Below, one piece after another: positions 27,057-56,856 of a DNA stretch of 64,000 nucleotides. Position 1 is the first letter of the stretch. Every line of letters starts with the position of its first letter. A program made the position numbers and the translations under genes. The stretch lies in contig OZ243916.1 in assembly GCA_965213675.1 (NCBI GenBank), forward strand, positions 1,952,001-2,016,000, in the 5' to 3' direction. The stretch comes from an uncultured Candidatus Binatia bacterium. Its GTDB lineage: Bacteria; Desulfobacterota; Binatia; UBA9968; JAJDTQ01. The notes beneath the pieces were generated by a model, which did no database searches, was not told where the DNA came from, and saw only the letters and a list, made by a program, of their open reading frames with translations.

Positions 27057-27221
27057 CTGGCGTCGTGTCCCGCAAATTCCTGCGATAATTCGCGGGTCTT
27101 TCTCGCCGCCGGCTGCGTGGCTCTTGCTCGCGTGGCAACCGCCACTGCTCGTCATCGCGCTTTGCCGACAACAAGAAATCCTGCGCAACTTGTCGCAGGA
27201 ATTTGCGGGACACGACACCAG
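27057..27221. mobile_element. 165-bp MITE-like palindromic element, copy A
   Basis: Terminal inverted repeats CTGGCGTCGTGTCCCGCAAATTCCTGCGA / TCGCAGGAATTTGCGGGACACGACACCAG; core very similar to 35741-35905. Confidence 0.8.
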
Positions 27222-27331
27222 GACCAGGCTCAGGACAGACGAAGCGAAGTCGACGGGCGTCGTCACATTGGAGCGGAGGCCCCCAAATGCGCTTCGTTGG
27301 ACAATTGCCCGCGGTTCTCTATAGTGACCCG

Positions 27332-28378
27332 ATGAGCCACGGACACAAGGAGATCATCTCGGCCGGGGACCGCACCACCTGGGCCGTCACCGCGCCAGCG
27401 ATCCTGACGCCGCGGGAGCGCGGGTCGGACCACGCCGCCGCCAGCATGGTGCGCACCCTGTTCGACCGCCCCCGCTGGCTGGAACCCTGCCACCTGTACG
27501 ACGAACGGGGTTCGCTGCTGTTCGAGGACATCTGCGAGTTGCCGGAGTACTACCCCACCCGCACCGAAGCGGCGATCCTGGAACGCGAGGCCGGCGCGCT
27601 CATGAGCCTGGCGCCGGTGGAGTGCATCGTGGAGCTTGGCGCCGGCTTCTCGAAGAAGACCGTCCATCTGCTGAAGGCGCTCACCCATGCGCGTGGCGGC
27701 GGCGCCTTCGCCGCGGTGGACGTGAGCAACACCGCGCTCATGGCGTCCAGGCGCATGGCCGAGGAGCTTTTCCCCGAGCTGGCCTTCACCGGGCTCGAAG
27801 CCCGCTTCGAGGACGCCATCACCAGCATCACCCGGGAGATCCCCAAGCTCGTGGTGTTCCTGGGCAGCACCATCGGCAACTTCTCTCCCACCGACATGCT
27901 GCACTTTTTCAGCCACCTGACCGAGAACATGGGGCCTGAGGACTACCTTCTGCTGGGGGTGGACCGGATCAAGGACCCGGCCATTATCGAACCGGCCTAC
28001 GACGACTCCCGCGGCGCCACCGCCGCCTTCATCCTCAATGGTTTCCGCAACGTCAACCGCGTCACCGGCGCCAGCTTCCAGCCGGACAAGATCGCCTACC
28101 GGAGCGGCTACAACCGCGAGCGCGCCCAGGTGGAGATGCGCGGCGTCGCCCGGGAGACCCACCGGGTGGAGTTCCCGCGCCAGTCCGCGTCATTCCTGTG
28201 GGAGCAGGACGAGCCGATCCTGGTGGAGACCAGCCGCAAGTTCGACCCCGACGACCTGCAGGTGCAACTCCGCTGCTTCGGACTCGAGACCCTGGGCCAC
28301 TGGACCGACCCGGAACAATGGTTCTCGCTGCTCCTGTTTCGCCGGAGCAAGCCCTCACACTCATCGGAGCCGCAATGA
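27332..28378 (+). CDS. egtD: L-histidine N-alpha-trimethyltransferase (hercynine synthesis)
   Basis: YDERGSLLFEDICELPEYYPTRTE, VELGAG, FLGSTIGNF, AYDDSRG, ETSRKF. Confidence 0.88.
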   Translation: MSHGHKEIISAGDRTTWAVTAPAILTPRERGSDHAAASMVRTLFDRPRWLEPCHLYDERGSLLFEDICELPEYYPTRTEAAILEREAGALMSLAPVECIVELGAGFSKKTVHLLKALTHARGGGAFAAVDVSNTALMASRRMAEELFPELAFTGLEARFEDAITSITREIPKLVVFLGSTIGNFSPTDMLHFFSHLTENMGPEDYLLLGVDRIKDPAIIEPAYDDSRGATAAFILNGFRNVNRVTGASFQPDKIAYRSGYNRERAQVEMRGVARETHRVEFPRQSASFLWEQDEPILVETSRKFDPDDLQVQLRCFGLETLGHWTDPEQWFSLLLFRRSKPSHSSEPQ

Positions 28379-35740: not shown

Positions 35741-35905
35741 CTAGTGTGGTGTCTGGTTAATTCGCGTCATAATCTGCGGGTCTTTTTCGCCGTCGGCTGC
35801 GTTGCTCTTCCTCGCGTGGTACACGCCACTGCTCGTCATCGCGCCTTGCCGACAATAAAAAATCCTCCGCAGATTATGACCCGAATTAACCAGACACCAC
35901 ACTAG
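35741..35905. mobile_element. 165-bp MITE-like palindromic element, copy B
   Basis: 39-bp terminal inverted repeats with one mismatch (CTAGTGTGGTGTCTGGTTAATTCGCGTCATAATCTGCGG), CTAG at both ends. Confidence 0.85.
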
Positions 35906-47837: not shown

Positions 47838-47857
47838 TGTGGTGTCTGGTTAATTCG
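47834..47857. repeat. Isolated end of the 165-bp element at the permease stop codon
   Basis: CTAGTGTGGTGTCTGGTTAATTCG identical to 35741-35764. Confidence 0.85.
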
Positions 47858-47954: not shown

Positions 47955-48133
47955 TTTGCGGCGGCGGCCGGTGGCCGGGCCGGATGCCGCTGCCGTCGAC
48001 GCATTCCGGCGTCCCGAATGAACCGCTGGGCTGCTTGACAGCCTTTCGGCGACGGCCTACGATTCCGACATTCCAGCACGGTGCGCCACCCAGCCCCCGG
48101 GTATCCCATTTCACGTTCGTGGAGGAAGCACAC

Positions 48134-49258
48134 ATGGCCAAGCAAGGCTTCAAGGCAATGGATTCCGATATGCATGTGTTCGAACCCCACGACCTGTGGG
48201 ATCGTTACATCGATTCGGAGTTCAAGGACCGCGCCCCCAAGGGTTTGCAACGCGATTTTCGCGACTTGGGCGTGGAGGTGGACGGGAAGATCCTGCCGGT
48301 GCCGAGGCGGCCGGAAAACCCCAACCTGCGCGAATACCGTCTGGCCACCCTGAAGGAGAAGTACAGCGACGTGGCGGCGCGCAACTTCGACGGCGTGAGC
48401 CAGGTCATGGCCATGGACAAGGAAGGCTTGGACATGGCGTTCCTGTTCCCCACCCGCGGGCTGTTCGTCCTGGGCATCGACGGGCTCGATCCGGACCTGG
48501 CGGCGGCCATCTCCCGCGCCTACAACGACTGGCTTTACGATTTCGCCGAGGCCGACCGTGATCGCATGGTGTGCGTCGCCATGGTGCCGCCGCACAACGT
48601 CGAGGCGGCGGTGGCCGAGACCCGGCGGACGGTAACCGAAATGGGTTTCCGGGGCGTCTTCATGCGCCCCAACCAGACCAACGGCAAGTGCTGGAGCGAC
48701 CCCTGCTACGACCCCCTGTGGGAGGTGTGCCAGAGCCTGAACGTGCCCGTGGGCTTTCACGAGGCCGGGCGCGTGTACCAGCCCCAGCCCGCCATCTCCC
48801 AGTTCATCCCGTCCTTCTCCATGTTCAACACCCTGAGCTTTCCGCTGGCCAACATGTTCGCGTGCGCGGACATGATCTACGGCGGCGTCATGGAGCGTTT
48901 TCCCAAGCTGCGCGTGGCCTTCCTGGAAGGCAACTGCTCGTGGCTGCCGTGGCTCCTGTACCGCATGGGCGACTACATGGAATCGGTGGGCAAGGCCGAG
49001 TACCCGGACTTGAAGCTCGAGCCGCTGGAGTACTTCCAGCGCCAATGCTTCGGCGCCGTGGAATGCGACGAGATCACCGCCCGGCACATCCCGGATTTCG
49101 GCCTGGAGGACAACGTGGTGTTCTCCACCGACTACCCGCACCTGGACGTCAAGTATCCCCACTCACTGGATACGTTCCTGGGAATGCCATTCTCCGACGA
49201 GTCCAAACGGAAGTACCTCTGGGACAACTGCGCCCGCCTTTACAACATGGAGCCATGA
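48134..49258 (+). CDS. Amidohydrolase family 2 protein
   Basis: DSDMH, AYNDWL, FHE, RFPKLRVAFLE, FSTDYPH, NCARLY; GGAGG RBS. Confidence 0.92.
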   Translation: MAKQGFKAMDSDMHVFEPHDLWDRYIDSEFKDRAPKGLQRDFRDLGVEVDGKILPVPRRPENPNLREYRLATLKEKYSDVAARNFDGVSQVMAMDKEGLDMAFLFPTRGLFVLGIDGLDPDLAAAISRAYNDWLYDFAEADRDRMVCVAMVPPHNVEAAVAETRRTVTEMGFRGVFMRPNQTNGKCWSDPCYDPLWEVCQSLNVPVGFHEAGRVYQPQPAISQFIPSFSMFNTLSFPLANMFACADMIYGGVMERFPKLRVAFLEGNCSWLPWLLYRMGDYMESVGKAEYPDLKLEPLEYFQRQCFGAVECDEITARHIPDFGLEDNVVFSTDYPHLDVKYPHSLDTFLGMPFSDESKRKYLWDNCARLYNMEP

Positions 49259-49418
49259 CACTCCCCGTGTCCTGTCCGGCGGATTCGCGCATGACAAGGT
49301 GCGGAGAAGTGTCTGCGGAGAACTGTCATCGCCGGCCAAACGCGATGACTTGCAGGAGCGACCGGCGGTCGCTTTCGCGGGCGCCGCGCGAGGAAATGCC
49401 ACGCAGCCGGCGGCGAAA

Positions 49419-50582
49419 ATGACCCGCGGACCCGCATGTGAACCCGCCGGACGGGACGCCGACTCCAAGGCGACATTCGCGCGCCGTGGGATCGTGGAAG
49501 GTTTCTTCGGCCCCCCGTGGAGCATGGCCCACCGTACGGCGATGTTCGCATTCGGCGCCGCCCGCGGCATGAACACCTACCTCTACGCACCCAAGGACGA
49601 CCCCTACCACCGGGAGCACTGGCAACTGCCCTACCCCGAGCCGGAATGGCGCGAGTTGTGCGCGCTCATCGCCGCCGCCCAGACCCACGGCATCGACTTC
49701 GTCTACGGCTTTCACCCCGGCAAGGACCTGCGCTTTGCGGATTCGGAACCGGTGGGCATTCTGCTGGACAAGGCGGCGCGCCTGTACGACCAAGGCGTGC
49801 GCACCTTCGCGGTGTTGTTCGACGACATTCCGTCTCGCCTTGCGGACGCCGGCGACGTGCAGCGGTTCGACGGCAGCCTGGCCAAGGCCGAATCCCTCTG
49901 GCTCGAAGCGGTGCTGGAGCGGCAAGCCGCGGCCTGGCAGGTGGAGTGGTGGTTCTGTCCCTCGTACTACACACCGGACCCGTTCCTGGCCAGGGTGTTC
50001 GGCGAGTTCGAGCCCGGCTTTATCGAGACCGTGGCGCGGCACCTGCCGGCAGCGGTGGCGTGCTTCTGGACCGGCCCCAAGGTGGTTTCCCGTGACATCC
50101 CGCTGGCACACGTCGACGACATCGCCCGGAGGCTGGGACACCGGCTGCTGCTGTGGGACAACTATCCCGTGAACGATCTCTACATGAAGGACGAGTTGCA
50201 CATCGGTCCCCTCACCGGACGCCATCCGCGGCTGCCGGAGCAGGCGCACGGGCACCTCGCCAACCCGCTGTTGCAGGAGGCGCTGAGCTTCGTTCCCCTT
50301 GCCACCTGCTTCGACTACGCGCGCGACCCCGGGGCCTACGATCCGGAGAAGAGTTGGGAGGCGGTCGTGGCGGAACGGTTCGGCGCCGCCAACCTGGAGC
50401 CCTGGCGGGCGCTCCGACTGTTTTGTGAACGGGACGCGGCCAGCGCCGGCGCGGCAACGTTTTCGGAGCCGGAGCGCGGCGCCCTCGCAGCCGCCCACGC
50501 CTACCTTTCGACTCACCGGAGCGAAGCGTGGCGCCGCGAGTTCGAACCGTGGCGGGAGCGGCTGGAGCGCGCGCTACACTAG
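49419..50582 (+). CDS. GH84 beta-N-acetylglucosaminidase (O-GlcNAcase) catalytic domain, no signal peptide
   Basis: GIVEGFFGPPWS, YLYAPKDDPYHR, catalytic FDDI, WTGPKV, WDNYPVND; start uncertain. Confidence 0.9.
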   Translation: MTRGPACEPAGRDADSKATFARRGIVEGFFGPPWSMAHRTAMFAFGAARGMNTYLYAPKDDPYHREHWQLPYPEPEWRELCALIAAAQTHGIDFVYGFHPGKDLRFADSEPVGILLDKAARLYDQGVRTFAVLFDDIPSRLADAGDVQRFDGSLAKAESLWLEAVLERQAAAWQVEWWFCPSYYTPDPFLARVFGEFEPGFIETVARHLPAAVACFWTGPKVVSRDIPLAHVDDIARRLGHRLLLWDNYPVNDLYMKDELHIGPLTGRHPRLPEQAHGHLANPLLQEALSFVPLATCFDYARDPGAYDPEKSWEAVVAERFGAANLEPWRALRLFCERDAASAGAATFSEPERGALAAAHAYLSTHRSEAWRREFEPWRERLERALH

Positions 50583-50608
50583 TGTGGTGTCTGGTTGATT
50601 CGCGTCAT
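50579..50608. repeat. Isolated end of the 165-bp element forming the whole GH84-senA spacer
   Basis: CTAGTGTGGTGTCTGGTTGATTCGCGTCAT, one mismatch to 35741-35770. Confidence 0.85.
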
Positions 50609-51911
50609 GGAAGACAAAACCGCATCCACCCGTGAAGTCCTGGGCACCCTGGAAGAGGTGCGCTCCCGGACCTTGGGCTTCGTTGAGGACCTGTCCGGGG
50701 AGCAACTCACGGTTCCCTTGCTGAACATCGTCAACCCCCCGCTCTGGGAGATCGGGCATGTATCCTGGTTTCACGAGCGCTGGGCGTTGCGGCATCTGCG
50801 CGGCCGCGATCCCATCATTGCCAACGGCGACGCGCTCTACGATTCCGCGGCCGTCCATCACGACACCCGCTGGGTGCTGGCGCTGCCGCCGCTTGAAGCG
50901 ACCCTCGCCTACAAGGCACGGGTCCTGCAACAGATCATCGAAGAGCTGCCCGCCCAGCGTTTGAGCCCGAAGGAAACCTACTTCCACAGGCTCGTGATCT
51001 TCCACGAGGACATGCACGCGGAGGCCATGACCTACACGCGCCAGACTCTGGGATATCCGCGGCCTCCATTCATGCGCCAACGCCAGGGCGCGGCCGGCGG
51101 TCCCTGCCCGGGCGACGTGGAGTTGCCGGGCGGCGAATTCATTCTCGGCGGCACGCCGGACCTGCCCTTCGTCTTCGACAACGAAAAATGGGGCCATCCG
51201 GTGACCGTGGCGCCCTATCGCATCGCCCGCGCTCCAGTGACGAACCTGGAGTTCGCCGCCTTCGTGGACGACAACGGCTACGGTGACTCGCGCTGGTGGA
51301 GCGACGCGGGCTGGCGCTGGCGGCAGGGCGAGGGGAGCGCCCATCCCGTCTATTGGAAACGCGAGTCTCCGGGACGGTGGCTGGAGCGGGTGTTCGATCA
51401 ATGGGGGCCGCTTCAAGCGGAGATCCCGGTGATCCACGTCAACTGGTACGAGGCCGAGGCGTATTGCCGCTGGGCCGGAAGGCGGCTGGCCACGGAGGCG
51501 GAGTGGGAGATGGCCGCGGCGGTGGACCCCGCCGGCGGCACAGATCCGGATGCCGCCAAGCGCCGCTACCCCTGGGGCGAGGTGCCGCCCGACCCCATCC
51601 ACGGCAACCTCGATTGGGCCGCTGGAGGCCGCCTGCCAGTGGACGCGCTTTCGGCGGGCGACAGCGCCGCCGGCTGCCGGCAGATGATCGGCAACGTGTG
51701 GGAGTGGACGGCCCACGCCTTCCACCCCTACCCCGGCTTCGTCCGGGACCCCTACAAGGAATACTCGGAGCCCTGGTTCGGCGACCGCAAGGTGCTGCGC
51801 GGCGGCTGCTGGGCCACCCGCTCCCACCTGATCCGCAACACCTGGCGGAACTTCTTCACCCCGGACCGCCGCGACGTGTTGGCGGGCTTCCGGACCTGCG
51901 CACGACACTAA
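50607..51911 (+). CDS. senA: Selenoneine synthase SenA-like non-heme iron enzyme (EgtB family)
   Basis: DinB-like NPPLWEIGH and HEDMHAEA, FGE-sulfatase domain (FDNEKW, GNVWEW, WRNFFTPDRRD); immediately upstream of senB. Confidence 0.85.
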   Translation: MEDKTASTREVLGTLEEVRSRTLGFVEDLSGEQLTVPLLNIVNPPLWEIGHVSWFHERWALRHLRGRDPIIANGDALYDSAAVHHDTRWVLALPPLEATLAYKARVLQQIIEELPAQRLSPKETYFHRLVIFHEDMHAEAMTYTRQTLGYPRPPFMRQRQGAAGGPCPGDVELPGGEFILGGTPDLPFVFDNEKWGHPVTVAPYRIARAPVTNLEFAAFVDDNGYGDSRWWSDAGWRWRQGEGSAHPVYWKRESPGRWLERVFDQWGPLQAEIPVIHVNWYEAEAYCRWAGRRLATEAEWEMAAAVDPAGGTDPDAAKRRYPWGEVPPDPIHGNLDWAAGGRLPVDALSAGDSAAGCRQMIGNVWEWTAHAFHPYPGFVRDPYKEYSEPWFGDRKVLRGGCWATRSHLIRNTWRNFFTPDRRDVLAGFRTCARH

Positions 51912-52050
51912 TGGCGTGGCACACGATGACGCGTGACAGGCCACGAATGTCTCGTCCTGTTCGACAACCCGGATGACAACACTTCGAACGAATTGGCCAG
52001 GACATCGGCCCATTGGATTGGACAACGAGTTGACACGAACAAGCACCGCG

Positions 52051-53007
52051 GTGGCCAGAATCGCGCTCGTGACTCCCGCTGGTCCCACCCGGCGCACCGG
52101 CAACCGGATTTCCGGGGGCCGGTGGGCGCGCATCCTGCGGGCGTCGGGATACAAGGTCACGGCCCTGGACCGCTACGAACGTGAACGCTGTGATCTGCTG
52201 ATCGCGTTGCATGCCCGGCGCAGTCATCCGTCCATCCGCCAGTTTCATGAGCGCCAGCCCGACAAGCCCATCATTGTCGTGCTGACCGGAACCGACCTGT
52301 ACCGCGACATTCACGTGGACGACGACTCCCGGGAGTCGCTGCGCTTGGCGACCCGCCTGGTGGTGCTCCAACGCAAGGGACTGGACGAACTCCAGCCGGG
52401 GCTGCACGAGAAGACCCGGGTCATCTACCAGTCCGCGCCAGCCCGTCCGGGCCATCGCCGCGACCGAAACCTGCAGTTCACGGTTACGGTGGTGGGCCAC
52501 ATGCGCCCCGAGAAAGACCCGTTCCGCACCGCCATGGCGGTGCGCTCGCTGCCCCGCACGTCCCGGATCCAGGTCACGCACATCGGCGACGCCTTCGGCG
52601 ACAGCTTCCTGCGCCGCGCCGAACGGGAAGTCGAGCACAACCCGCGCTACCGCTGGCTGGGCGACCTGCCCCACTGGAAGACGCGGCAACTCCTGGCCAA
52701 CAGCCACCTCACGTCCATCACCTCGCGCATGGAAGGCAGCTCCAATGTCCTGTGTGAAGCGCTGGCCTCCGGCGTGCCCGTGGCCGCGTCCAGGATCTCC
52801 GGTTTGATGGGAACCCTGGGCGACGACTATCCCGGCTACTACGAGATGGGCGACACCGCCGGGCTCAAGCGTCTCCTGCTGCGGGCCGAGAACGATCCGG
52901 CGTTCTATGAGAACCTGGCACGGCACTGCGCCAAGGTCGCCCCCCTGGTGAACCCGGACCGGGAGATCCTGACTTGGCAGGGGTTGGTCCGTGAAGTGAC
53001 GCGTTGA
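52051..53007 (+). CDS. senB: Selenosugar synthase SenB-like glycosyltransferase (TIGR04348 family)
   Basis: GNRISGGRW, IALHARRS, LTGTDLYRD, GHMRPEKDP, SRMEGSSNV. Confidence 0.9.
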   Translation: MARIALVTPAGPTRRTGNRISGGRWARILRASGYKVTALDRYERERCDLLIALHARRSHPSIRQFHERQPDKPIIVVLTGTDLYRDIHVDDDSRESLRLATRLVVLQRKGLDELQPGLHEKTRVIYQSAPARPGHRRDRNLQFTVTVVGHMRPEKDPFRTAMAVRSLPRTSRIQVTHIGDAFGDSFLRRAEREVEHNPRYRWLGDLPHWKTRQLLANSHLTSITSRMEGSSNVLCEALASGVPVAASRISGLMGTLGDDYPGYYEMGDTAGLKRLLLRAENDPAFYENLARHCAKVAPLVNPDREILTWQGLVREVTR

Positions 53008-53210: not shown

Positions 53211-54370
<1,160 letters not shown>

Positions 54371-54374
<4 letters not shown>

Positions 54375-55162
54375 TGGATCACCGTTCCTTTCCCCGCCAA
54401 CGCGTCTCGCACCGGGTGTTCCGTGCGGCCGTCGCTCATGATGACCTTTTCCGCGCCGTCCTCGAAGAGCTTGCGCAGCGCCAGCATCTTGCGCTTCATG
54501 CGCCCCTCCACCTGCCCCTCCCGCTGTTCCAGTTCACCCGCCCGGATGTGCGGCACCACGGTGCCCTCGTCGTCCTTGTCGGCGAGGAAGCCCGGCGCCT
54601 CGATGAGCTGCAGCACCACCTCGGCATGGAAGGCAGCCTGGAGCACGTTGATGATGTCGTCGTTCTCCGAGTTGATGGCGTTGTGGCGCTCGTCGATGAT
54701 GGGGATGGACAGCACCGGGGCGTAACCGCCGTCGAGCAGCAACTGGAACAGTTCCCTGTTGGCGCTCCGGGGCTTGCCCGAGAAGTCGCGTACGATGAGG
54801 GTCTTGCCGTTCTTGCGCACCCGGATGCCCTTGTTGCGCTGGCCCTGAATGGCGCGGCCATCGATGCCCGAAAGGCCCACGGCATTGACCCCATTCTGTT
54901 GCAGCAACTCCACGATGCGCTTGTTCTGAACCCCGGCGTAGCCCATCAGGATGGCGTCGAGCGCGTCTTTGTCCGACAGCACGCTGGTGTAGCCCGACAC
55001 CGACGTGACCACCTGGGTGGGGGTCCCGAGCCTGGCCGCGATGGCGTCGCGCACCGCGTTGGCGCCGTGCACCACGATGAACCGGTCGGACACGGCCGCC
55101 AGATCCCCGGCGATGCCCGGAAGGTTGATGTCGCTGCCGCCGCCGATCTTCACCAGTATCAT
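54371..55162 (-). CDS. lysZ: [LysW]-aminoadipate/glutamate kinase
   Basis: MILVKIGG, VVHGA, TSVSGYTS, GRMKRK; basic GQRNKGIRVRKNGK segment as in LysW-binding kinases. Confidence 0.9.
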
Positions 55163-55797
55163 CGAAGGTGCTCCACCGTGTCGTTGGGGATGACGCGCCA
55201 GTCGCCGCCCTCCGGCACGGTTTCCGAGCTGACGGTGAAGCCGCCCTCGTTCTCGCGGGCGCGCAGCCTGAAGTAGTCGGGTTGTTCATTGAAGAACGAC
55301 CCGACGTAGACATTCTCACCATCGGCAATGATCATGTTCATGGCGCGCACGTAGCGAGTCCTGCGGACGATGATGTCCATCCCCTTGCGCATGGCCGCGG
55401 CCATGTCGCCCTTGTCGAAGCGCTTGACGAAGTTGAACACTTTTTCCGCGCCGATGCGGCCTTCCGCGTTGATGCGAACGCCGCGCAGTTCGCCGTTGAA
55501 GGCGAACACGTAGCGATCATCGGAGAACGGCATGTTGTTTGCCACCACGATGTTCTCGTCCCGGAACGCGCTGCGGGCGTGTCCCACCAGCAGCGTGGTG
55601 GCGCCGAACTGCGTCAGGTCGTCCTCCCAGATGGGCTTGATGTTGTGATAGAACCGCCACGCGCCGTCAACCGTGTAGGCGCATCCCCAGCCGTGGCCCT
55701 GGTACTCGGGACTGTTCCGGGCGATGCCGGCCAGATGGGACAAGCGCTCGCCGATGTCGAACGGCTCCCGGCTCTTGACGCACAACAGGCGACACAT
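55159..55797 (-). CDS. Class II glutamine-amidotransferase-like Ntn hydrolase (EgtC/YafJ/Dug3-related)
   Basis: MCRLL N-terminal Cys, GHGWG, GHARSA, NMPF, FNG; ATGA overlap with lysZ. Confidence 0.85.
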   Translation of the reverse strand: MCRLLCVKSREPFDIGERLSHLAGIARNSPEYQGHGWGCAYTVDGAWRFYHNIKPIWEDDLTQFGATTLLVGHARSAFRDENIVVANNMPFSDDRYVFAFNGELRGVRINAEGRIGAEKVFNFVKRFDKGDMAAAMRKGMDIIVRRTRYVRAMNMIIADGENVYVGSFFNEQPDYFRLRARENEGGFTVSSETVPEGGDWRVIPNDTVEHLR

Positions 55798-55809
55798 GGC
55801 GTTGGACCG

Positions 55810-56856
55810 CTAGGGGTGGAGGCCCGGGAACTCGAGGCCCTCGGTTTCCTCGAAGCCGTTCATGATGTTGAAGGCCTGGACCGCCTGCCCGGCGGCGCCC
55901 TTCATGAGGTTGTCGAGGGCGCTCAGCACCACCAGCCGGTCCGACCCCTTCTCCTTCTGGAAGCCGATGTCGCAGTAGTTGGTGCCGCTCAGCAACTTGG
56001 GCTCGGGATAGCGGTAGATGCCGTCGGCTTCCTTGACGATGCGGATGAAGGGCTCCTTGCCGTAGGCCTCGCGGTAGGTCTTCCACACGTCCTTCTCTTC
56101 CAGCGGTTCGCGCAGGAACAAATGGCACGTCGCCAGGACGCCGCGCACCATTTCGATGGAGGTGGCGGAGAAGTACACCCGGACCGGCTCGCCGAACGCC
56201 AGTTCCTGGTAGATCTCCGCGCTGTGCCGGTGCAGGGTGGGCATGAACGAACGCACGGCGCCGCTCCGTTCCGGGTGGTGGGACGCGTCGCTGGCGGCGT
56301 TGCCGCCCTCGCTGGACCCCACCTTGACCTCCACCACCGTGCGCTCGGTGTCCACCAGCCCCTTCCTGAAGAACGGATAGACGCCAAGGATCGTGGCGGT
56401 GGCGTTGCAACCGGCGCCGGTGACGAAGCTCGCCTCCCGGATCTCCTCGCGGTGCAGCTCAGGAACCCCGTAGACGAACTCCTTCAAGAGCTCCGGGCGC
56501 TGGTGCGGCTTGCCGTACCAGCGCTGGTATTCGTCCACGTCGTTGAGCCGGAAGTCCGCGCTCAGATCCACCAGCTTCGGGGCGAGATCCCGGAACGACT
56601 CGATGCGTTCCTGGGCCTGGCCGTGGGGCAGGCAGAGGAACAGCAGGTCGCACGGCTTGAGCTCGTCCATCCTGCAGAAGCGGAGCTGCGTCCGCTTGCG
56701 CAGATTGGGATGGGCCTTGAACACGAACTTGCCCGCGAAGCGCTCCGAGGTGACCTCGCACACCTCCACCCGGGGGTGCCCCAGGAGCAGCCGCAGGAGC
56801 TCGCCGCCCGTGTAGCCGGACGCCCCCACGATAGAGACCTTCAGCTTCTCGATCAC
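55810..56856 (-). CDS. lysY: [LysW]-acyl-phosphate reductase (LysY/ArgC)
   Basis: GASGYTGGELLRLL, HPNLR, DLSADFRL, GCNATA, HHPERSG, LDNLMKGAAGQA. Confidence 0.9.
   Translation of the reverse strand: MIEKLKVSIVGASGYTGGELLRLLLGHPRVEVCEVTSERFAGKFVFKAHPNLRKRTQLRFCRMDELKPCDLLFLCLPHGQAQERIESFRDLAPKLVDLSADFRLNDVDEYQRWYGKPHQRPELLKEFVYGVPELHREEIREASFVTGAGCNATATILGVYPFFRKGLVDTERTVVEVKVGSSEGGNAASDASHHPERSGAVRSFMPTLHRHSAEIYQELAFGEPVRVYFSATSIEMVRGVLATCHLFLREPLEEKDVWKTYREAYGKEPFIRIVKEADGIYRYPEPKLLSGTNYCDIGFQKEKGSDRLVVLSALDNLMKGAAGQAVQAFNIMNGFEETEGLEFPGLHP

Follow-up and report, generated by a model that had tools for sequence, protein, structure and literature searches.

A glycoside hydrolase family 84 gene in the selenoneine operon of Binatia-like bacteria points to a possible, hitherto undescribed step of sugar removal or recycling

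Introduction

Why does a gene cluster for biosynthesis of selenoneine, a selenium antioxidant, start with a glycosidase gene? The question is raised by a stretch of 64,000 nucleotides (hereafter the window; C1:1952001-2016000, C1 being contig OZ243916.1) from the genome of an uncultured Candidatus Binatia bacterium, in which a gene for a protein of glycoside hydrolase family 84 (GH84) is followed on the plus strand by senA and senB. Selenoneine biosynthesis was described in 2022 as the work of three enzymes, followed by spontaneous loss of the sugar (10.1101/2022.04.13.486033). Here we report that one order of Binatia-like bacteria has GH84-senA-senB as its standard selenoneine operon. This arrangement points to a step of sugar removal or recycling that has so far not been described for the pathway.

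An earlier analysis of the window from its letters alone (the sequence-only reading) knew of no description of a glycosidase-dependent branch, and we have likewise found no publication on it. In the literature found, no glycosidase is described in sen or ovs clusters (supplements, which lay outside the search, may hold cluster drawings showing one), and none appears in a table of gene families co-encoded with NHISS genes (PMC13674229). The publications found on selenoneine and ergothioneine make no mention of Binatia.

Identity of the GH84, SenA and SenB proteins

The first gene of the cluster (window positions 49419..50582, plus strand) encodes a putative cytoplasmic protein of the GH84 β-N-acetylglucosaminidase family with 387 amino acids, as judged from PF07555, the predicted fold and the catalytic aspartate pair. 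The open reading frame 49299-50582 (+) matches PF07555 with an E value of 8.2e-82 and 275 bits (cut-off 25). We place the start at the ATG at 49419, where homology to the relatives sets in; the stop codon TAG occupies 50580-50582. No hydrophobic stretch that could serve as a signal segment is present at the N-terminus, whose first 16 residues are disordered in the AlphaFold model. The catalytic pair D135-D136 aligns with the DD of Clostridium perfringens NagJ and is invariant in 28/28 aligned GH84 proteins. Furthermore, G28, K59, Y184, W246, N248, D253 and N282, which lie in the columns that form the -1 subsite for N-acetylglucosamine (GlcNAc) in C. perfringens and human O-GlcNAcase (OGA), are at least 90% conserved both inside and outside the clade to which the protein belongs (see below). 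The closest solved relative is the OGA of Thermobaculum terrenum (5diy; E 2.6e-59). The model (predicted local distance difference test score, pLDDT, 92) consists of a (β/α)8 barrel and a C-terminal helical bundle and matches 5diy in Foldseek with E 5e-32 and TMq 0.86. β-N-acetylglucosaminidase activity is predicted for this protein.

Like the OGAs of T. terrenum and Oceanicola granulosus (2xsa), the GH84 protein of the window is short and lacks a signal peptide, and it has the fold, the catalytic DD and the GlcNAc-binding columns in common with the bacterial OGA homologues (5diy, 2xsa, NagJ). Unlike them, it belongs to a separate clade, being at most 42% identical to these proteins and differing from them at about 40 signature positions; for example, F replaces the conserved Tyr of the GFYG motif, and several additional Trp and Glu residues are present. 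Another difference from known bacterial OGAs is its partnership in the genome with selenium enzymes rather than with a GT41 O-GlcNAc transferase (OGT), for which no PF13844 match was found in this genome (97.7% complete). We considered the loss of the peptide-stacking Tyr as a mark of a non-protein substrate and rejected it: human OGA Y69F remains active (PMC3476531), so the Tyr-to-Phe exchange in this clade is not evidence on the substrate.

The senA gene (50607..51911, plus strand) begins 24 bp after the GH84 gene, whose stop codon ends at 50582, and encodes a putative selenoneine (selenoxide) synthase, i.e., a non-haem iron enzyme with DinB_2 and FGE-sulfatase domains, apparently of the hercynine-accepting type. 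It scores 507.1 bits on NF041186 (NCBI curated cut-off 420) and stays below the cut-off for EgtB (336.4 bits vs 360 on TIGR03440). In overall sequence, the protein is nearer to OvsA, its best solved relative (330 bits), than to SenA of Variovorax paradoxus (256 bits). However, the top score was obtained with the engineered OvsA-YNF variant (8ux5) and not with wild-type OvsA. Alignments to 8ux5 and 8u41 place Y, N and F at the positions of OvsA M401, Q430 and A431 and reveal the catalytic Tyr; it is this Y/N/F exchange that turns OvsA into a hercynine-accepting, SenA-like enzyme (PMC11030361). All three residues that bind SeGlcNAc in V. paradoxus SenA, N63, E68 and R120 (PMC11237966), have equivalents in the alignment to 8ryz. 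No other NHISS was found in the genome.

The senB gene (51973..53007, plus strand) encodes a putative selenosugar synthase (Se-glycosyltransferase) with 382.7 bits on TIGR04348 (curated cut-off 300), matched by the solved SenB structures at E 1e-56. The equivalents of catalytic K158 and of N20 and E231 are present, and T23 is replaced by Ser; N20, T23 and E231 determine donor selectivity (PMC10891094). The sugar-donor motif EGGAHV is changed to EGSSNV both in the window and in 14 Binatia-type loci; three metagenome-assembled genomes (MAGs) of Burkholderiales that carry the same GH84 clade have EGGANV in its place. The His that is changed here contacts C4' of the sugar, and its mutants are partly active (PMC10891094). 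We tentatively read EGSSNV as a clade signature rather than as a sign of lost function.

The cluster resembles the canonical senABC clusters of V. paradoxus and Amycolatopsis (10.1101/2022.04.13.486033) in that SenA and SenB exceed the family cut-offs and possess the published catalytic and substrate-binding residues, and in that hercynine would come from an EgtD encoded elsewhere in the genome. It differs from them in being led by a GH84 gene, in the SenB motif and in the lack of an adjacent senC, the only selD being a selenocysteine (Sec)-containing housekeeping gene. With the ovoselenol cluster ovsA-ovsM-senB-senC (PMC11030361) it shares the use of a SenB selenosugar, which is shed there as 2-acetamidoglucal; unlike in that cluster, the NHISS has the hercynine-type Y/N/F and not the histidine-type M/Q/A of OvsA. 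The description of the locus in the sequence-only reading (a GH84 without signal peptide and with an intact DD, 24 bp upstream of senA and followed by senB) was confirmed by the coordinates, PF07555, the curated cut-offs and the NagJ alignment.

Conservation of the gene order

A scan centred on GH84 with one genome per species yielded 80 loci. In 19 of them the GH84 is at least 52% identical to that of the window; these are loci of Binatia or "delta-proteobacterial" MAGs and of the three Burkholderiales MAGs. The senA gene, with or without senB, lies directly downstream on the same strand in 14 of these 19 loci, and in 2 more the contig terminates at the GH84 gene. No sen genes were found near GH84 in any of the 61 loci with identities of 42% or less. 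(Our counts include restricted-use genomes, i.e., G005, G013 and G015 among the 19 loci, G651, G661 and G703 among the 89 genomes discussed below, and G736, G915 and G1004 among the Burkholderiales; the conclusions are unchanged without them.)

In a census starting from SenB, 401 genomes of the window's class were sampled. SenB is present in 98 of them, nearly all belonging to the window's own order (25/27 in family f1, 60/63 in f2 and 3/4 in f100), and exceeds the cut-off in only 2 of 301 genomes sampled across the phylum. Among the 89 SenB-positive genomes of the order, the window's genome included, 73 have GH84 upstream of senB on the same contig and strand, with 0.3-4.5 kb between the family matches. 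In 8 others GH84 is located on another contig, and in the remaining 8, which are fragmented assemblies, it was not found. Outside this order, 9 genomes of the class are SenB-positive; none of them shows this adjacency, and 6 have no GH84 at all. The genes upstream of the trio vary by lineage (an amidohydrolase; LysE, desaturase and FGE-only genes; tRNA-modification genes; or an α/β hydrolase). Inside the operon, a scan for promoters and terminators gave no signal beyond that expected from shuffled sequence.

In a tree of 83 GH84 sequences, from which L022 and L026 were omitted (best aligned pieces below 250 residues), 22 rows form one clade with a support of 99 (SH-like approximate likelihood ratio test). 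This clade consists of 18 sen-adjacent genes and 4 from genomes with SenB elsewhere, and of no others. Altogether, five genomes have a GH84 of this clade away from sen genes, and all five encode SenB elsewhere. In four genomes of three genera, GH84 and senB are adjacent while senA is located on a different contig or at a distance of over 1 Mb.

The sequence-only reading recognized the GH84/senA spacer as the end of a mobile element and warned that the adjacency may be accidental. The first statement proved correct: the 24-bp spacer (50583..50606) is a solo terminal inverted repeat, i.e., the insertion footprint, of a 157-bp miniature inverted-repeat transposable element (MITE), as revealed by a genome motif scan. 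Contig C1 contains 60 complete copies of this MITE with its 24-bp terminal inverted repeats and 18 solo ends. The spacer motif occurs, within 4 mismatches, 73 times on the plus and 76 times on the minus strand of the genome, in most cases paired at a spacing of 157 bp. The window itself has a complete copy (35745-35901) and solo ends at 47838 and 50583. Only in this genome has the MITE inserted into the region of the amidohydrolase, GH84 and senA genes, and it did so twice. Moreover, the 160-bp gap between the amidohydrolase and GH84 genes (49259..49418), which contains fragments resembling repetitive DNA, the MITE interior among them, is not present in relatives of the same genus. The relatives L006-L008 have the same gene order with GH84/senA spacers of 4-14 bp and no repeat. 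As close relatives keep the order without the repeat, the insertions postdate the gene order and are not its cause. We therefore reject an accidental adjacency through a mobile element, as the order is kept in 73 of the 89 genomes as well.

Joint loss of GH84 and SenB is uninformative: the order has 6 SenB-negative genomes, and in the 5 that were examined the gaps apparently reflect contig ends or fragmentation of the assembly. A mutual replacement of senC-type and GH84-type clusters within the class was not seen, selD being on the senB contig in only 1 of the 9 SenB-positive genomes from other orders. Burkholderiales are a weak independent test of co-occurrence, since the three MAG contigs could be mis-binned; in addition, SenB in these MAGs says little because it is common there (over the cut-off in 105 of 301 Burkholderiales genomes). 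The GH84 proteins of these three records (L011, L014, L015) are 62-66% identical to that of the window and nested in the Binatia clade, being due either to horizontal transfer or to mis-binning. A GlnS neighbour is common to L014 and the Binatia loci L016 and L018.

Supply of selenophosphate and hercynine

The absence of a selenophosphate synthetase gene noted in the sequence-only reading holds for the window but not for the pathway. Indeed, a genome search scored against the cut-off revealed no selD inside the 64 kb, and none of the 80 GH84 loci is flanked by a SelD match. The sole match above the cut-off in the genome is located at C1:2717463-2718389, ~0.7 Mb from the window, in a selA-selB-selD operon (C1:2713736-2718494), and contains an in-frame TGA of the Sec type. 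Two genes for tRNA-Sec were detected with aragorn, one at C1:323213-323307 and one on a second contig; one of the copies may be foreign, as the assembly has an estimated contamination of 8%. The selD gene is also present in all 19 genomes with this GH84 clade, in 17 of them with an in-frame TGA. A selenium-free pathway or one with a special donor, considered for want of selD, was consequently rejected, and a sen cluster can evidently do without its own selD where a housekeeping selD exists.

Hercynine would be supplied by a putative EgtD-like histidine N-α-methyltransferase, whose gene (27203..28378, plus strand) stands alone 21 kb upstream of the GH84 cluster. With 280-281 bits on TIGR03438 (cut-off 290.9), it is the genome's sole match to this family. 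Note that the family match starts at residue 80 (~27440-28378), so that the start codon is uncertain. In the relatives L019, L020 and L094, EgtD is encoded at most 2.6 kb from the GH84 gene. With both hercynine and selenophosphate available, the lack of selenophosphate synthetase is a property of the window alone.

Possible function of the GH84 protein

The order-wide synteny, the dedicated clade and the presence of SenB in every genome with this clade support a functional tie of the GH84 to senA and senB. It probably acts on some GlcNAc species derived from SenB or SenA. As its main substrate we tentatively favour, at slightly less than even confidence, the reduced hercynyl-Se-GlcNAc (a selenoether), from which selenoneine would be freed. 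This proposal extends the known pathway as follows. SelD would provide selenophosphate, SenB would form 1-seleno-β-GlcNAc with UDP-GlcNAc, and SenA would couple this selenosugar to hercynine with O2, resulting in hercynyl-Se-GlcNAc selenoxide, part of which would be converted to selenoneine and 2-acetamidoglucal by spontaneous elimination. Thiols rapidly reduce selenoxides, and part of the flux in the thiol-rich cytoplasm should therefore end as the selenoether, which would be unable to eliminate. GH84 would then cleave the β-Se-GlcNAc bond of the selenoether by substrate-assisted catalysis to selenoneine, a good leaving group, and GlcNAc, so that the scarce selenium would not be trapped in a dead end. 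In favour of such a reaction, Macauley and co-workers reportedly observed in 2005 that human O-GlcNAcase can hydrolyze aryl thioglycosides if the leaving group is good.

Published biochemistry provides several of these elements. SenB makes a 1-seleno sugar and prefers UDP-GlcNAc (PMC10891094). In the SenA reaction in vitro the selenoxide was not seen; selenoneine was formed together with the reduced hercynyl-Se-GlcNAc selenoether, which was ascribed to dithiothreitol (10.1101/2022.04.13.486033).

Several points weigh against the selenoether as the substrate. V. paradoxus makes selenoneine with senABC alone (10.1101/2022.04.13.486033), and since most sen clusters work without GH84, its step would be accessory at most. 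The survey of SenB neighbourhoods, a check which the sequence-only reading had suggested, showed that GH84, regular as it is in this order, is not a general companion of sen genes: a GH84 of any kind occurs in only 2 of the 105 Burkholderiales genomes with SenB. Elimination of the selenoxide is described in the literature as rapid (PMC11030361). Cysteine-linked S-GlcNAc is resistant to human OGA (PMC8451060), and chalcogen glycosides are hence not automatic GH84 substrates. GH84 is separated from senA-senB in two Binatia genomes, and the four genomes with GH84-senB and no adjacent senA fit a product of SenB as the substrate at least as well as a product of SenA. Finally, synteny within one order may stem from a single ancestral arrangement.

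It is possible, although we hold this slightly more tentatively still, that the GH84 clade represents a natural selenoglycosidase and opens a second, reductive and enzyme-dependent exit of the pathway (selenoxide to selenoether to selenoneine and GlcNAc); in family f2, a GlcNAc-selenoneine conjugate may in addition be a genuine metabolite, transported via an AmpG-family permease. The three-enzyme selenoneine pathway would then be incomplete as now drawn, at least in these bacteria. To our knowledge, no enzyme has so far been shown to serve a selenoglycoside specifically, and a GH84 cleaving Se-GlcNAc would be the first. Such an enzyme could also improve selenoneine yields in engineered production, given the known shunt to the reduced selenoether. 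More generally, a glycosidase kept in the operon across a whole order suggests that the loss of the sugar, its fate or the trapped selenium is handled enzymatically in some organisms.

Could GH84 deal with the sugar after its release? It might hydrate 2-acetamidoglucal, the one-for-one by-product of selenoxide elimination, to GlcNAc, thereby recycling the sugar or removing a compound that may inhibit enzymes acting on GlcNAc. N-acetyl-glycals are tight ligands of hexosaminidases, some of which hydrate them, and no family of GlcNAc hydrolases other than GH84 was found in the window's genome, GH20 and GH3 included. However, N-acetyl-glycals are mainly inhibitors and not substrates of enzymes using substrate-assisted catalysis, the carbon saving would be trivial given the small flux of selenometabolites, and a NagZ-like GH3 able to do the job is present in 31 of 33 genomes of family f2. 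This role seems unlikely, even though 2-acetamidoglucal was seen in the OvsA reaction and the sugar is stated, by analogy with SenA, to depart as this compound (PMC11030361).

It is more doubtful that GH84 acts on the free selenosugar or on an imported Se-GlcNAc compound, releasing selenide or a selenol for homeostasis or scavenging (in f2 perhaps together with the AmpG-family permease). This would agree with the genomes in which GH84 stays beside senB with senA elsewhere, and with the presence of an AmpG-family gene of the major facilitator superfamily (MFS) after senB in 10 loci. Yet co-transcription of SenB with an enzyme destroying its product would create a futile cycle at the cost of ATP and UDP-GlcNAc. 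Moreover, the AmpG-like gene of the window's genome is 20 kb away, and it may encode a housekeeping permease, since it is the only gene of this family in each of the five genomes checked.

A function without relation to selenium, with GH84 standing beside senAB by inherited order only, is improbable in our view. GH84 could replace NagZ in the hydrolysis of muropeptides imported by AmpG or hydrolyze other GlcNAc-glycans or O-GlcNAc: AmpG is present, GH3 was found neither in the window's genome nor in 24 genomes of the same genus nor in 3 of family f100, GH20 is missing from the window's genome, the sugar-binding site is that of ordinary GH84 proteins, and synteny can last by descent within one order. 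A cytoplasmic exo-β-GlcNAc hydrolase (predicted) near an AmpG-family permease, as in the f2 loci, indeed resembles the AmpG-NagZ system of muropeptide recycling. In contrast to that system, the hydrolase is a GH84 and not a GH3, selenium genes are located between hydrolase and permease, and the f2 genomes mostly possess the separate NagZ-like GH3 mentioned above and keep GH84-senA-senB all the same. Furthermore, SenB accompanied the clade in every genome in which it was found (19/19), the trio stays together although its flanking genes are reshuffled, and the lack of a GT41 OGT in the window's genome speaks against O-GlcNAc as the substrate.

We know of no biological source of 1-thio-GlcNAc and of no thiophosphate donor for the last candidate, the thiosugar route to ergothioneine proposed in the sequence-only reading, in which GH84 would be required as the sulfoxide does not eliminate. 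This route is highly improbable, the selD genes in all genomes with the clade and the SeGlcNAc-binding residues of SenA type (not EgtB type) in the window's SenA arguing against it and nothing beyond chemistry speaking for it, i.e., the stable sulfoxide that accumulates without ergothioneine when SenA is given thioglucose (10.1101/2022.04.13.486033), in a genome with senA as the only NHISS and with EgtD.

Neighbouring genes

The gene upstream of GH84 (47984..49258, plus strand) encodes a putative Amidohydro_2 protein (PF04909, E 2.9e-33). Among solved structures, its best match is PtmU3 (6omp, E 1e-34), a diiron monooxygenase. This neighbour is specific to the genus. In seven loci of the same genus (L006-L008, L102-L105) it abuts or overlaps the start of the GH84 gene, which suggests a four-gene operon of the amidohydrolase and the trio in this genus. 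Open frames of 750-786 amino acids hinted at a fusion of the two proteins; this was rejected, as the reading frames differ and the genes merely abut or overlap.

The AmpG-family MFS permease gene is convergent and located right after senB in L009, L012, L013, L016, L018, L019, L021, L023, L026 and L094. Its family score is 511 bits in L094 and 252-264 bits, i.e., under the cut-off of 350, in L009, L012 and L016. The homologue in the window's genome lies outside the window (C1:2024539-2026002), downstream of senB. Just past the permease gene, arsenic-resistance-like genes can be found in L012 (8449-10299) and L023 (12999-14185), which encode an SBF/ACR3-type carrier or a MIP channel and an ArsC-type low-molecular-weight phosphatase.

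A gene for a 267-amino-acid protein consisting of the FGE-sulfatase domain only, without DinB, is divergent from GH84 in L012, L019, L020, L022 and L091-L093. Genes for a LysE-type exporter, a fatty-acid-desaturase-like protein and EgtD are often located near it; the product of family f2 may be more elaborate than selenoneine. The best homologue of this FGE-only protein in the window's genome is 47% identical (C1:3817685-3818476).

Downstream of the trio and convergent to senB, the window contains a LysW-type lysine (aminoadipate) block (53211-56856, minus strand) with genes for a LysJ-like transaminase, a [LysW]-aminoadipate kinase and an ArgC/LysY-like reductase. Between the kinase and reductase genes of this block, there is a gene for a 212-amino-acid protein similar to class-II glutamine amidotransferases, with a weak match to EgtC (44 bits vs a cut-off of 219).

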